A DNA stretch of 64,000 nucleotides from an uncultured Planctomycetaceae bacterium (lineage in GTDB: Bacteria; Planctomycetota; Planctomycetia; Isosphaerales; Isosphaeraceae). The position numbers were made by a program, and so were the translations under genes. The notes beneath the pieces are model-generated. The model was not told the origin of the DNA. It was given only the letters and a program-made list of their open reading frames with translations, and searched no databases. Positions 57,492 through 63,396 of the stretch are shown in pieces (positions within the stretch are counted from its first letter, which is position 1; each line of letters opens with the position of its first letter). The stretch is taken from contig CAWIAD010000002.1 in NCBI GenBank assembly GCA_963833985.1, forward strand, positions 1,088,001-1,152,000, in the 5' to 3' direction.

Positions 57492-57892
57492 TCAGGGCGT
57501 GAGCCAATCCTCCAGCCGGAGTCCGCGGATGTTCTGGAAATCTGCGGTGTTGTTCGTGACGAGGGTCAGGTCGTAGACGAGCGCCACGGAGGCGATCAAT
57601 AGGTCAACTGGATTGACATTCGTACCTTGTCGCAGCAGATCTCTCCGCATCTGGCCGAAGATCCGGCGCAATCGTCATCGAAATCAAGCCGGGTCACCTC
57701 GTCACGGAGCAACCCCTCGATCGCCGACAATCGAGCACTCGGGTCTTCCTTCCCGAAGGCCCAGACGTAGAGTTCCGCCAGTGCGATCGATGACAGGTAC
57801 AGACGCCCGGAATACTGAACGAACCGGTGTGCGAGTCCACCGGGTCGTTTCAAGTAGACCGAGACGATGTTCGTATCGAGGAGATAGCTCAC
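57492..57892 (-). CDS. vapC: VapC PIN-domain toxin; frameshift near 57665
   Basis: [18 protein letters not shown]...LVTNNTADF...LEDW; GTGA overlap with the antitoxin stop. Confidence 0.85.
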
Positions 57893-58197
57893 TCCGGCAG
57901 CTCCCGCCACCTTGACGCCTTGCGGTCTGCCTGAATCTGGTCGAGAATCCGGTCATCCTTTTCCGTCCATTCATCCGCCAGGACGCCCGCCACCTTCGAG
58001 GGTGCGCCAGGGCTCCAGCCGGGCGGCGGTCCAGGCAGCGTCTTTGGAGTCTTTGGGAGCTGACTCGCTTCCGGTGGATGTTCCAGCGATCCGGAGGGGG
58101 TAACGACCAGCTCGACGGCTTGCCCTTCCCACATCCCAAGATCCTCGCTGATCACGATCGTTTTACCGTGAACAATTCCATGCAGGACTCTTGTCAT
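57889..58197 (-). CDS. putative antitoxin (DUF104/AbrB-like N-terminus)
   Basis: LHGIVHGKTIVISEDLGMWEGQAVELVV; AAGGAG RBS; directly upstream of the PIN gene. Confidence 0.7.
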   Translation of the reverse strand: MTRVLHGIVHGKTIVISEDLGMWEGQAVELVVTPSGSLEHPPEASQLPKTPKTLPGPPPGWSPGAPSKVAGVLADEWTEKDDRILDQIQADRKASRWRELPE

Positions 58198-58233: not shown

Positions 58234-59710
58234 CTGTACTTTCCGCGATTTCGCTCCCTAACTTCGTGAGCTGATTCGGGTAGACGAATGCCGGTCCGGC
58301 CGGGACGATGTCGGTTAGCTGACCAAAACATCAACCCGGACGGAGCCGGCCATGACATCTTCGCACCAGGATGTGCCTGCATGCCAGTGGTTCTCGCGCC
58401 TCGCCGAATTCCTCGACCGCAGATCGGCTCCCAGACTGGCCTGGCTGTTCCTCGGGGCGGTCCTGGCCCGCGGGCGGAGGACCGTCATCAGCTGGATCCG
58501 AGCCGCTGGCCTGAGCAGCCAGTTTCGACCCTGCTACACGACGGTCGCGGCTGCCGGCAAGCAGGCCAAGAACATCGCCGCCCGCCTGGTCTGCGAGGTC
58601 GTCAAGCCCTTGGTTGCCAACCAGACGCGGCTCACCTTGGCGATCGACGACACGCCCACAGAGCGTTACGGGCCGCTGGTCCAGGGAGCTGGCATCCATC
58701 ACAACCCGACTGCTGGCCCGGCGGGTTCACCACATGTTTACGGCCACATCTGGGTGGTGATCGGGCTCCTGGCCGCCCATCCCGCGTGGGGAGTCATCGC
58801 GCTGCCGCTGTGGGCGCGGATGTATGTTCGAGTGAAGGATCTGCCCGCGATCTACCCGCAGCATCGGCCGGAGTTCCAGACCAAGCTGGAGATGGCTGTC
58901 GAGCTACTACAATGGGCTCGCTCCTGGTTCAAATACCTGGGCAAGCCGCTGTGGGTCGTGGTCGACGGGGCGTACGCCAAGGCCCCGTTTCTGAAGCCGG
59001 CGATGTCGCTGGGGATGACAGTTGTCAGCCGCTTGCGCAAGGACGCGGCGCTCTACACGGTGCCGGGACCCCGCGTGGCCGGGCGTCGCGGCAGGCCGAG
59101 GAGCTACGGGGAGAACCGGATCGAGTTGGCCAAGCGAGCCGGGCAGCGTCGCGGCTGGACGAGCGAGGTCTTCAAGCTCTACGGCAAGCCGGCGAAGAAG
59201 CTGTACAAGACGTTCGTGGCGACCTGGCGGCCTGTCAGTGGCACGATCCGTGTCGTGCTGGTGGACGAGCCGGGGGGCTGGGTGGCCTTCTTCTGCACCG
59301 ACCCGAATGCATCGGTGGGCGAGATCTTGGAGGCCGTCGCCGACCGGTTTTCGCTGGAGACCACGTTTCGCGATTGCAAGGAGGTCGTGGGGGCTGGCCA
59401 GCAGCAGGTGCGGTTCGTGTGGGCAAACATCGGTGCATTTCACATCTGCCTGTGGACGTTCACGATGACCGAAGCGTGGGCCTGGAACCGTCAGGAAGAC
59501 GAGTTGGTGGACCGGAAGGCATCACCGTGGGACGATCCGAATCGCCGCCCGAGCCATGCCGACAAGCGTCGGGCCTGGCGTCGCGAATTGCTGGCCGCAG
59601 AGATTCGCGGCGTTTTACGCCCTGGGGTCACCGAGGAAGAATTCCAGGCCGTGACCGAGCGGCTGCTCGCCCTGGCGGCATGAAGCTACAGTCATTCGCG
59701 GAAAATGCAG
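58234..59710 (+). mobile_element. IS701-like insertion sequence
   Basis: imperfect terminal IRs ctgtactttccgcga (58234-58248) and tcgcggaaaatgcag (59696-59710), 13/15 match; no target-site duplication visible. Confidence 0.75.
58352..59683 (+). CDS. DDE transposase (IS701 family)
   Basis: LAIDDT, VVVDGAY, RFSLETTFRDCKE. Confidence 0.88.
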   Translation: MTSSHQDVPACQWFSRLAEFLDRRSAPRLAWLFLGAVLARGRRTVISWIRAAGLSSQFRPCYTTVAAAGKQAKNIAARLVCEVVKPLVANQTRLTLAIDDTPTERYGPLVQGAGIHHNPTAGPAGSPHVYGHIWVVIGLLAAHPAWGVIALPLWARMYVRVKDLPAIYPQHRPEFQTKLEMAVELLQWARSWFKYLGKPLWVVVDGAYAKAPFLKPAMSLGMTVVSRLRKDAALYTVPGPRVAGRRGRPRSYGENRIELAKRAGQRRGWTSEVFKLYGKPAKKLYKTFVATWRPVSGTIRVVLVDEPGGWVAFFCTDPNASVGEILEAVADRFSLETTFRDCKEVVGAGQQQVRFVWANIGAFHICLWTFTMTEAWAWNRQEDELVDRKASPWDDPNRRPSHADKRRAWRRELLAAEIRGVLRPGVTEEEFQAVTERLLALAA

Positions 59711-59934
59711 TAGTCAAGCGAGCCGCGGTTTTTTCTTCTGAGAATTTGCTCCTGCTTACGAGGATTTGGGGGTGTCGTCGATCTTAATCGTAGTTCTGTT
59801 TACGTAGTTTCTTCCTTTCCCCTCTTGTCGAGCCCGAGTTGAGCTCCAGTGGTCTACTCGATCGCCGCCTTCCGCGGCTGAGGATTCAGGACCTGTGTGA
59901 TGCTCCTGGTTAAACGGGAAGTCATCAATTTCAT

Positions 59935-60150
59935 GTGTGTGCACTTGATGGTCCGATGAGTTTCGCCGCCGGTTGTCCCATTCTTCTATCCGAGCGTTGG
60001 CCCAAAGGCCTAGCCCCAATGGGTGCTTCGAGACGGTTGAAGAGGACGACCCCATCTACAAACGAGCATCAAGCCCAAGGGTGGGGCGAATCGCCCTCTT
60101 CAGCCCGGGACGCAACGGTGATTCTCAATAACCAACATGCCTCGCTTTGT
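59935..60150 (-). ncRNA. candidate bridge/seek RNA of the IS110 element
   Basis: non-coding region 3' of the transposase with stems GCCCCA/TGGGGC, AGATGG/CCGTCT and ATGGG/CTCAT, and guide-like segments matching the target and the element end; boundaries approximate. Confidence 0.55.
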
Positions 60151-60162
60151 GAATCAATGTGT

Positions 60163-61186
60163 TCAGGCCGCTTGTTTCAGTTTGATCGGTCCTCCTGCGA
60201 CTTGGTGGAACAGCCAACGGACCCAACGGTTCCCGACCGCGGCGGCAACGACACAGGCGGGCTTGCCGGCCTGTCTCATCGTCGTGGCCAACGCCTTCCA
60301 GCGCGGGTTGTAGCGGATCAGTCGGTGGGCGGTCTCGATGATCGTGGCGCAAGTACTCGTTGCCCGCCTTGATCAGCCCAGCGTCGGCCTGACGTTGGCC
60401 GCTGGAGGCATTGCGCGGCGACAAGCCGCAGTATCGTGCCATCTGCTTGCCGGTGCTGAACCGATCGAAACGACCGATCTCTGCCCGCAAGCACCAGTCC
60501 GTCACCAAGCCGACTCCGGCGAGCAAGATCAGTTGGCTGACGACCGGGTCCTCGGAAGTCACCTGAGCCAAACGTACTTCGACATTGAAGATCGCGTCGG
60601 CGACGTCGCGGAGTTCTTCGATCAACCGATTGGCGACCCATCGGGCTTCGCTGCCGAGCCCTTCGGCGGTCGCCAACCACGTCAGCCAGGTCCGTCCCCA
60701 GCGCCGGGCCTTGGGTTCGACGACACGGTTGTCGCGGAGCAACGCGGTCACGCGAAGCTTGGTGTTGCGACGCCGGTTGGCGAGCTGCTGGCGATAACGG
60801 GTCAGGGTGCGGAGCTGGCGGACGTCCGCGGGTGCCAGCCAGACCCTGGGCAAATAGCCGACGCGGACCAGATCGGCGATCACACGGGCATCGACCCAGT
60901 CGGTCTTGTCGGGAGTCTGCTTCATCCGCGCGACATAGCCGGGGTGCGCGAGGTTGATGATCCAGCCATGCTTCGTGGCCAGTTCGTCGGCGAGGTTTGC
61001 GGCGCCAGAGCAGGCCTCAATGGCTGCCCGGACATCACCGCCGAAAGGTGCGACCAGCTTGACCAGGGCCTCAGCCTGATTCTGACAGGGCCGGTTCGCG
61101 AGCATCTTGCCAGAGGAGTCCATGACGCACACTTGAATGGAATCCTTGTGGTAGTCGAGGCCAATGTAAGCAGTTACCTTGGACAT
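60163..61186 (-). CDS. IS110 family DEDD transposase/recombinase; frameshift near 60348
   Basis: IGLDYHK, IEA, KTDWVDA, GVG, EIGRFDRF, GLSPRNASSG; the corrected frame ends ...VGNRWVRWLF...KQAA* at 60163. Confidence 0.9.
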
Positions 61187-61334
61187 GGTCTGTTGCTCCG
61201 CTCTGAGGGATGGGGTTCGACTCCTCCAGGGTAAACCCCGCGATCGTGTCGCGGCAGGAGCAACAGGCTTTCATCCCCATCTACAAGAGTGGAGACGACC
61301 GGGTGCGAGGGGTTTCGGGAATTACCGCGCGAGG

Positions 61335-61410
61335 TGGTCCGGTGGGTTGCGCTGCGCTGACCACCCTACAAGAGTGCCCACTGCCGACTGCCCACTGCCG
61401 ACTGCCTACT
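61335..61410 (-). repeat. GTAG-type REP plus heptamer (CTGCCNA) run
   Basis: ggtgggttgcgctgcgctgaccaccctac is an inverted copy of the 55938 family; followed by aagagtg and ctgccNa repeats. Confidence 0.8.
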
Positions 61411-61537
61411 CCCCACGGAAAACCATGGAGGCCAGGGGCTGCTGGAACGATATCATGGACGGCAGTCCGATGGCTCGTCGGGCGGCGGGCGACCGCAGGA
61501 GAGAAGGGACTCGTGAAATGGACAAACGAGGAGCTGA

Positions 61538-61773
<236 letters not shown>

Positions 61774-61774
<1 letters not shown>

Positions 61775-62148
61775 TGCGTTTCAAGGTCGACGAGAACCTG
61801 CACCCGGACGCCGCCGATCTCCTGCGGGCAGCCGGTCACGACGCCATGACCGTCTTCGACCAGGGGCTTCGTGGCCACCCGGACGAGGACATCGCCACCG
61901 TCTGCCAGCGTGAGCAGCGGGCCATCGTGACCCTCGACCTGGATTTCAGCAACATCCGCCAGTACCCGCCCGAGGACTACCCCGGCATCATCGTCCTTCG
62001 GTTGGAGAACAAGGGCCGCCCGTCCGTGGTGATCGCCCTCACGCAGATTGTCCCTTTGCTCGCCACGGAGCCGCTGGCCGGACACCTGTGGATCGTCGAG
62101 GAGCAGCGGGTGCGAATTCGTCAGGGCAGAACCAGCGGCTTGCCGTGA
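61774..62148 (+). CDS. DUF5615 PIN-like toxin
   Basis: MRFKVDENL, GHD, DEDI, IVTLDLDF, GIIVLR; TGATG coupling. Confidence 0.88.
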
Positions 62149-62446
62149 ACTGGGCAAAGAGATGATGGCGGCGTCACCGAACACCGGCTCCAGCCGAACG
62201 CCAGGCCGGCCGGGGACCCTTCGCCCGTGGTCCGGTCAAACTCCGATCGGCACTGAGGATCGCTCGCCGCGGACCTGACAACGCCAGCGGAGAGGTTCGC
62301 TCTCGAATACGGATCTTCTCTCCAGCCGCCGGTCCAATGGCTCGTCGATCGGCCAGCGACCACGAGTCAAGGGGCTTGCCACTTCTCCAGCCATCTGAAC
62401 AATCAGAGGAGAGGGCTCGGAGACCCGGAAGAAACAGGAGACCGCC

Positions 62447-62677
62447 ATGATTACCGTGACGATCCAGGAGGCCCAGACCGGGCTGCCGGAGTTGATCCGC
62501 CGTCTGACGCCAGGGGAGGAGGTCATCATCACGGACGACGACAAGCCGGTGGCCAGGCTGTCTCGCAGCGAGCCGAAGACCACGTGGCCGTGCAAGGCGG
62601 GTAGCGCCAGGGGCAAGGTCTGGATGGCTCCGGATTTTGACGCCCCGCTCGAAGAGTTCAGGGAATACATGGAGTGA
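62447..62677 (+). CDS. Phd/YefM-type antitoxin
   Basis: VTIQEAQTGLPELI...GEEVIIT..DKPVARL; C-terminal APDFDAPLEEF. Confidence 0.88.
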   Translation: MITVTIQEAQTGLPELIRRLTPGEEVIITDDDKPVARLSRSEPKTTWPCKAGSARGKVWMAPDFDAPLEEFREYME

Positions 62678-63060
62678 ACCTGCTTTTGGACACCCACACT
62701 CTGCTCTGGTTCCTCAACGACGACCCCAGCCTGAGCGTCGCCGCAAAGGCCCTGATCGAGGACCCGGTGAACCGCAAGCTCATCAGCGTTGCGAGCTGCT
62801 GGGAGATCGCCATCAAGGTCGGCCTCAAGAAGCTCGACCTCGGTGAACCCACCACGACGTTCCTGCCCCGGGAACTGGCGACGAACGGCTTCGATCTGCT
62901 CGGGATCGATCTGATCCATGCGACTTCTGTCGAGTCGCTGCCTCCGCACCACAAGGACCCTTTCGACCGGCTGATCATCGCACAGTCGATGATCGAGAAC
63001 CTGCCGGTGGTCAGCATGGACGCCCAGCTCGATGCCTACGGGATCACCAGGCTTTGGTAG
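62674..63060 (+). CDS. vapC: VapC PIN-domain toxin
   Basis: LLLDTHTLLW, S.WEIAIK, HKDPFDRLIIAQ, SMD; GTGA overlap. Confidence 0.92.
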   Translation: MNLLLDTHTLLWFLNDDPSLSVAAKALIEDPVNRKLISVASCWEIAIKVGLKKLDLGEPTTTFLPRELATNGFDLLGIDLIHATSVESLPPHHKDPFDRLIIAQSMIENLPVVSMDAQLDAYGITRLW

Positions 63061-63231: not shown

Positions 63232-63396
63232 GGTCCGGTGGGCCAGCGCTGCGCTCGACCCACCCTACAAGAGTGCCTACCGCCTACTATTGACAGGCAA
63301 GAATGCCTGTCCTCCGCTTCCATTGACAGGCAAGAATGCCTGTCCTCCCTTCTTCACTGCCTACTGCTTGCTGCCTGCTGCCTGCTGCCTGCTGCC
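63232..63396. repeat. composite repeat cluster: REP, two 27-bp palindromic repeats, heptamer run
   Basis: ggtgggccagcgctgcgctcgacccaccctacaagagtgcc; attgacaggcaagaatgcctgtcctcc at 63289 and 63322; ctgcctg-type repeats at 63357-63396. Confidence 0.8.

Follow-up and report, generated by a model that had tools for sequence, protein, structure and literature searches.

The locus at the end of the 64,000-nt window (the whole stretch of DNA analysed, from an uncultured Planctomycetaceae bacterium) holds an insertion sequence next to part of a REP, and the question it raises is whether the element is guided to this repeat by an RNA and, if so, which bases of the RNA read the target and the element's own ends. 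Very probably the element is a broken IS1111-type insertion sequence of the IS110 family, lying directly 3' of the GTAG tag of a host REP, whose four predicted guides likely pair with the REP target and with the joined ends of the element itself. The proposal, made in the original prediction, of an RNA-guided IS110-family recombinase system aimed at this REP family was thus upheld more strongly than a single sequence allowed.

The gene of the IS110-family DEDD recombinase is located at 60164..61186 on the minus strand. It carries PF01548 (DEDD RuvC-like domain) and PF02371 (serine domain), passes NF033542 with 176 bits against a cut-off of 140, and its putative catalytic residues D11, E57, D96, D99 and S262 align with the catalytic residues of IS621 named in PMC11208158. 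The reading frame is two bases short near 60346-60347 in comparison with five relatives that have two additional bases there, which confirmed the frameshift claimed previously. No other IS110 gene is present in the 10.2-Mb assembly, and no further copy of the element was found in its own genome by blastn, tblastn, Pfam or a profile search of the RNA. Only 94 bp lie 5' of the gene and more than 450 bp of non-coding sequence lie 3' of it, a trait of the IS1111 group; on sequence grounds the element is assigned to the IS1111 type by this downstream non-coding region, by its subterminal inverted repeats and by the order of its predicted guides.

The insertion site was examined together with the repeat family of the host. 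The left half of the interrupted REP (61281..61291, minus strand) reads CACTCTTGT, includes the AG core at 61282-61281 and agrees with the left target guide at 6/7 positions. An uninterrupted GTAG-tagged REP, whose 5' arm is one G shorter than the family consensus, is found 85 bp upstream of the insertion site (61341..61376, minus strand), and a second uninterrupted one with the same CACTCTTGTAG foot is found at 63237..63275 (minus strand). Allowing at most one mismatch, CACTCTTGTAG occurs three times in the window against 0.23 expected. All sequence strings quoted in the original prediction are present where it had placed them, and its statement that the IS interrupts a REP right after GTAG holds. 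The GTAG-GGTGG repeat GTAGGGTGG has 165 copies in the 10.2-Mb genome, 158 of them with the closing arm, and the triplet before the tag is most often TTT (43/158). Next to two of the seven Y1 (RAYT-like) transposase loci there are 11 and 9 copies, in line with what RAYT-associated REPs should show. With its many copies, its tag and hairpin, and a RAYT gene flanked by copies, the repeat is a true REP family; GTAG repeats have been reported in the PVC superphylum (PMC3733652). Around the element, toxin-antitoxin-like pairs were recognised by Pfam at 61541-63060 on the minus strand (Phd/PIN, DUF433/DUF5615). An 11-copy repeat in G000 (e.g. C1:1891959, C2:675944), probably another IS end, includes a stretch resembling the left flank of the element.

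To obtain relatives, 401 genomes of the class were searched, giving matches in 18 with the own genome counted; six of the 121 genomes of the family had the alignment. A metagenome scan confirmed 536 relatives, of which the best 80 were used. The resulting 121 loci were reduced to 108 for analysis by dropping one too short to align, five distant ones (about 30%) and seven duplicates. Singulisphaera sp. Ch08 has two copies, 86-87% identical (L032 and L033), which made a planctomycete host likely. In a quick tree of the relatives, drawn without named reference elements, the window element clusters with L019, L036 and L038 (SH-aLRT 98), and each of these three insertions is followed by GGTGGG and the closing arm.

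Intact relatives start with AG followed by ATGGGG-ATGAAAG and finish with TTGAC-N12-TTCAT-AGA-AG. Thus AG (GG in one lineage) is found at both of their ends as a core, without a longer target duplication; the window copy retains the left core only, and by comparison of the sequences an AG core appears to be a feature of its IS1111-type element as well. The left end (61264..61280, minus strand) begins with the 6-nt extension ATGGGG, the right donor half, followed by the left subterminal inverted repeat from 61274. The subterminal inverted repeats agree at 9-13 of 15 bases in seven relatives (of nine chosen), and the window keeps the left repeat only. The terminal extensions are 6 nt, the 2-nt core and 3 nt, values that depend on where the core and the start of the repeat are placed. 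The variable 3' tail (59711..59963, minus strand) ends in a conserved TTGAC at 59717-59713 and has no right inverted repeat, core or REP right half. TTGAC lies 17 nt before TTCAT in 80/81 right ends.

Several other features were seen in the tails. An ORF of 99 codons (59756-60055) overlaps the RNA and the tail, and relatives differ there by indels. A near-perfect hairpin of about 70 nt is present in the tails of L002, L036 and L038 and missing at that place in L019 and the window copy. Thirteen relatives (L003, L044, L047, L049, L050, L053, L055, L056, L057, L058, L059, L088 and L119) share, 3' of the guide RNA and before the right end, a conserved module that is about 85 nt long and contains two hairpins; the window element is without it, and no Rfam match at the gathering score was obtained for the module in the loci scanned.

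The right end had been placed at 59893, but the similarity of the window to L033 and L036 runs well beyond this point, up to the TTGAC at 59717-59713. From 59710 the IS1111 end is replaced by the inverted repeat of an IS701-family element (58234..59710, plus strand; NF049999), which has an intact gene (58352-59683), 15-bp imperfect inverted repeats and no flanking direct repeat. Because the IS701 inverted repeat starts at 59710, no REP arm follows beyond the IS701 element and the right-end motif TTTCATAGAAG has zero occurrences in the 10.2-Mb genome, the last 20 or so bases of the IS1111 right end and the right half of the REP were considered lost. The truncation at the IS701-family element also accounts for the absence of the other REP half at the right end presumed earlier, and since the own right junction is missing, the right target half of the window copy was taken from relatives. 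The simplest explanation for the loss would be that the IS701 element deleted the DNA next to it. The sequence following 58234 was considered as a remainder of the IS1111 right end; it starts with GAAG and is then unlike REP, and the resemblance was taken as chance. Beyond the IS701 element, a small toxin-antitoxin-like pair lies at 57596-58197 on the minus strand.

The RNA was predicted at 59964..60118 on the minus strand. The region from the window was aligned with 37 relatives picked for closeness and spread (38 sequences in all), which gave a consensus fold in the form of a three-way junction: a closing stem, a long stem that contains the target-binding internal loop and an inner hairpin, and another hairpin with a donor guide on either side. 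In this fold 89.8% of the cells are paired, two-sided changes are found in 14/28 pairs and none of 500 shuffles scored as high, figures that lean towards the fold as it was scored on the alignment used to derive it. The non-coding region of the window alone folds modestly (z -1.78), and its minimum-energy fold partly differs from the consensus. Rfam gave three chance-level matches on 59600-61500, none near the gathering score, and nothing at the gathering score on six relatives. The guides follow each other in the order right-target, left-target, right-donor and left-donor, and in the relatives, too, the right target guide comes before the left, that is, the top-strand match precedes the bottom-strand match. 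Covariation of guides with target and donor within a conserved fold, described below, marks this region as a predicted bridge/seek RNA.

The right target guide CCCCACCCT, i.e. CCCCACC+CT (60078..60086, minus strand), is complementary to AG-GGTGGG, the latter being the REP 5' arm. For its evaluation, 73 of the 108 loci were usable, having a guide that could be parsed and a right flank of 7 bases or more, with L002 excluded for its degenerate right end, and these gave 43 distinct guides and 35 different flanks. The 43 guides match their own right flanks at a mean of 5.53/6 positions, compared with 2.20 ± 0.18 after shuffling and 2.86 in the highest of 5000 shuffles, a statistic that, like the other shuffles used here, ignores kinship among the relatives. 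Complete matches were found for 31 guides, while six matched at 5/6, five at 4/6 and one at 2/6. For example, the guide CCCACCCT is accompanied by GGTGGG next to the element in 13/13 loci with a readable flank versus 1/62 other loci, and a closing arm follows GGTGGG in 10/12 loci with this right guide. The 43 distinct elements form groups of 25 and 18 whose cores are one base apart, with the loop strand constant at 10 nt. In the window the guide starts with C (60086), where the closest relatives and an environmental contig from run X2 have A; an A would pair with the next base of the REP.

The left target guide TTTGT+AG (60056..60062, minus strand) was tested against the left flanks of 51 distinct elements. 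At positions -3 to -6 the match is 0.94, 0.88, 0.71 and 0.55 versus 0.56, 0.49, 0.33 and 0.30 in shuffles, and covariation is absent at position -7. The earlier assignment of TTTGTAG as left target guide was thereby confirmed. It is followed by AT, as in 46/51 elements, which may represent a handshake dinucleotide. The decoded 13-base target TTTGTAGGGTGGG has 45 sites in the genome against 0.05 expected, and 43 of them are inside REPs.

The left donor guide ATAGA+AG (59983..59989, minus strand) reads the same as intact relatives do at their right end. This guide equals the last seven bases of the element in 83/87 loci, including those with the variants ATCGAAG and ATAGAGG, so that the donor role proposed earlier for GATAG(AAG) also stands. 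The right donor guide CCCA (60020..60023, minus strand) is the complement of TGGG, which forms bases +2..+5 at the left end of the element. It is fully paired in 64/67 elements, multi-copy ones collapsed, versus 54.8 ± 0.9 after shuffling, and it tracks a variant left end in six of nine elements; the exceptions L006, L054 and L094 have variant left ends without a matching guide. The six concordant changes are perhaps 3-4 independent events, and because of this kinship and the three exceptions the case for the right donor guide is weaker than that for the other guides. In a sublineage of L076, L098 and L106, the left-end extension is one base shorter and the right donor guide region is altered. 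No handshake covariation was detected after the left donor guide (0.26 vs 0.21 and 0.21 vs 0.19); as the donor AT is invariant (51/51), covariation has no bearing on the candidate AT handshake that follows the left target guide.

This reading of the guides differs from two others. In the original prediction, the RNA was decoded in an IS621-like order, with TTTGTAG and then CACCC as target guides, and GATAG and then CCATC as donor guides. The strings exist, and in this one copy CACCC and CCATC are complementary to GGGTG and GATGG. When homologues were aligned and guide covariation was scored, the left-hand guides TTTGTAG and GATAG(AAG) survived and the right-hand ones CACCC and CCATC did not. 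CACCC is constant in 28/43 distinct elements regardless of the target and indifferent to it (2.81/5 vs 2.78 shuffled, with 37% of shuffles as high); it overlaps the right donor guide CCCA, and it is the donor that its last bases follow. CCATC is present in 1/96 loci, namely the window's own. On the 38-sequence alignment, the stems proposed with these guides, AGATGG/CCGTCT and GCCCCA/TGGGGC, show no covariation beyond shuffles (76% of cells paired, 131/500 shuffles as high), and single-sequence folds of the two proposed loops are not significant (z -0.65 and +1.04). We therefore give this decoding next to no chance of being correct. It is also conceivable, although unlikely, that only the target loop works, as a short seekRNA like that of ISEc11, while the ends are recognised by the protein through the inverted repeats, the donor matches being either vestigial or needed for excision alone. 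It has been reported that an 82-nt seekRNA is enough for ISEc11 movement (PMC11187229); moreover, the right donor guide has just 4 nt without the core and fails in 3/9 variant cases, and the relative L041 has an extra target loop without a donor part. However, the left donor guide follows changes of right end and core in separate lineages (the 83/87 loci above), and the donor half of the RNA is conserved as much as the target half, which favours the reading with four guides.

A further question is whether the two lesions exist in the organism. The window copy is probably dead, given the right-end truncation and the 2-base frameshift, and probably immobile, since the end that the left donor guide would read is lost and the genome contains no intact partner. 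If the frameshift, the truncation or both were assembly errors, the element could be intact in the organism. In favour of this, environmental contigs from runs X1 and X2 contain the two bases absent from the window; these contigs come from other, related strains, however, with 11 and more differences per contig. Furthermore, the truncation coincides exactly with an inverted repeat of the IS701-family element, whose gene is intact, the right-end motif is found nowhere in the 10.2-Mb assembly and the IS110 gene is single. None of the contigs of four DNA sequencing runs spans the element. An intact element was thus judged very improbable, and the broken copy is retained as the preferred reading.

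By analogy with systems described in PMC11187229, PMC11208160, PMC11208158 and PMC13626964, an intact element of this type would follow a cycle of excision, a junction promoter and RNA-guided insertion. Excision at the AG cores by the complex of recombinase and RNA would yield a circle, as for ISEc11, ISPa11 and IS621. The joined ends may form a promoter that drives expression, with TTGAC just inside the right end; no clear -10 box was seen by eye at the predicted end junction. The sequences recognised by the target loop would be TTTGT-AG (bottom strand) and AG-GGTGGG (top strand), those recognised by the donor guides ATAGA-AG and TGGG. Through recombination at the AG of the GTAG tag, the element would then come to lie between the tag and the hairpin.

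The targets of the relatives indicate how far this programming extends. Hairpins of at least 5 bp start in 37 of 76 distinct right flanks versus 5.4 expected, and 51 of 88 left flanks end in GTAG. The same guide is found on separate branches of the quick tree (the GGTCCG target in L031/L040, L046, L086 and L109), which suggests repeated retargeting. The relatives in G149 and G171 (L129-L140) target hairpins with a GTGG tag, which they enter from the opposite strand at the tag/hairpin boundary, with 33 and 8 matching sites and none for the controls; the G171 lineage has a GG core that is mirrored in its guides. Most copies of the G398 lineage have a non-hairpin target, so the clade is not restricted to REPs. 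The tail of L041 (1620-1690), a single metagenome contig and one of 111 RNA-profile-matched loci, contains a second target-binding loop without a donor part. The right guide of this second loop fits the actual right flank at 7/7 positions (main loop 5/7), and the left guide of the main loop fits the left flank at 7/7 (second loop 5/7). In L031 (1340-1824), the right end is joined at an AG within its own recombinase gene, so that the RNA and the 3' portion of the gene are present twice, the result of either off-target recombination or an assembly artefact. A wider and distinctly doubtful idea is that the clade follows the REP families of its hosts by repeated reprogramming of a single guide of 6-7 nt, with insertion where tag and hairpin meet in one orientation or the other, perhaps via duplication of the target loop as in L041. 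If true, L041 would be a natural two-target element and would point to a route by which bridge RNAs retarget.

The closest model for the window element is ISPa11/ISEc11 of the IS1111 group and not IS621. As described in PMC11187229, seekRNAs of this group have the top-strand target match 5' of the bottom-strand match, and the IS1111 element ISPa11, which has a mapped seekRNA, is directed at a REP. The window element resembles ISPa11/ISEc11 in the non-coding region 3' of the gene, the subterminal inverted repeats, the guide order and the natural reprogramming between relatives, and ISPa11 also in the REP target (PMC11187229). It differs in host group and REP family, in a predicted junction of 11 nt between the inverted repeats (6 + AG + 3) compared with the 7+3 or 6+3 given in PMC11187229, and in that the donor guides of its clade were decoded by covariation.

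With IS621 it shares the aligned DEDD and serine active site (PDB 8WT6), four guides and a REP target (PMC11208160, PMC11208158, PMC13626964). The IS621 target ATCAGGCCTAC begins with GTAG on the other strand, so that its CT core would be the AG of the tag, at the same position as in the window element; the two would then use this AG from opposite orientations in the REP. Read from the CT strand, the target guides found here appear to stand in the IS621 order, and the AT after the second target guide resembles the A81/U82 handshake. In contrast, the RNA of IS621 lies 5' of the gene and not 3', its donor loop is simple whereas a three-way junction is predicted here, and its recombinase is distant (E 1e-11). 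The proposal of an IS621-like bridge recombinase was upheld in its predicted RNA-guided REP targeting and wrong in the left-then-right guide order, the right target guide being upstream of the left. ISPpu9 of Pseudomonas putida likewise uses REPs as insertion sites, with recombination at an AG dinucleotide (PMC12288879), and ISPpu10 of the same species is described as needing a target stem-loop besides guide pairing (bioRxiv 10.64898/2026.03.19.712850), to be compared with the 37/76 right flanks beginning a hairpin here; both belong to the IS110 group, without long inverted repeats and with the RNA upstream. The nearest named element in a plasmid collection, in which the best of 662 matching records has 31-32% identity, is IS5708, with an IS110-family transposase at 30.5% identity over 93%, which is too far removed to count as the same element.

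REP targeting by IS1111/IS110 elements (ISPa11, IS621) and the guide order are published, and the window copy adds a clearly readable example of an already described mechanism; since the copy is also probably dead, the finding changes no concept. Titles and beginnings of abstracts gave no publication on this planctomycete clade, a member of which may be catalogued in supplementary tables. The value of the finding lies in the data set. Donor guides in the multi-loop of IS1111 orthologues are described only as potential where PMC11208160 treats them, and about a hundred relatives now allow a base-level decoding of an IS1111-type RNA that includes both donor guides in the multi-loop. In addition, the recombinases of the clade are compact (341 residues), cover many natural target specificities and are distant from named plasmid elements, with 31% identity or less.
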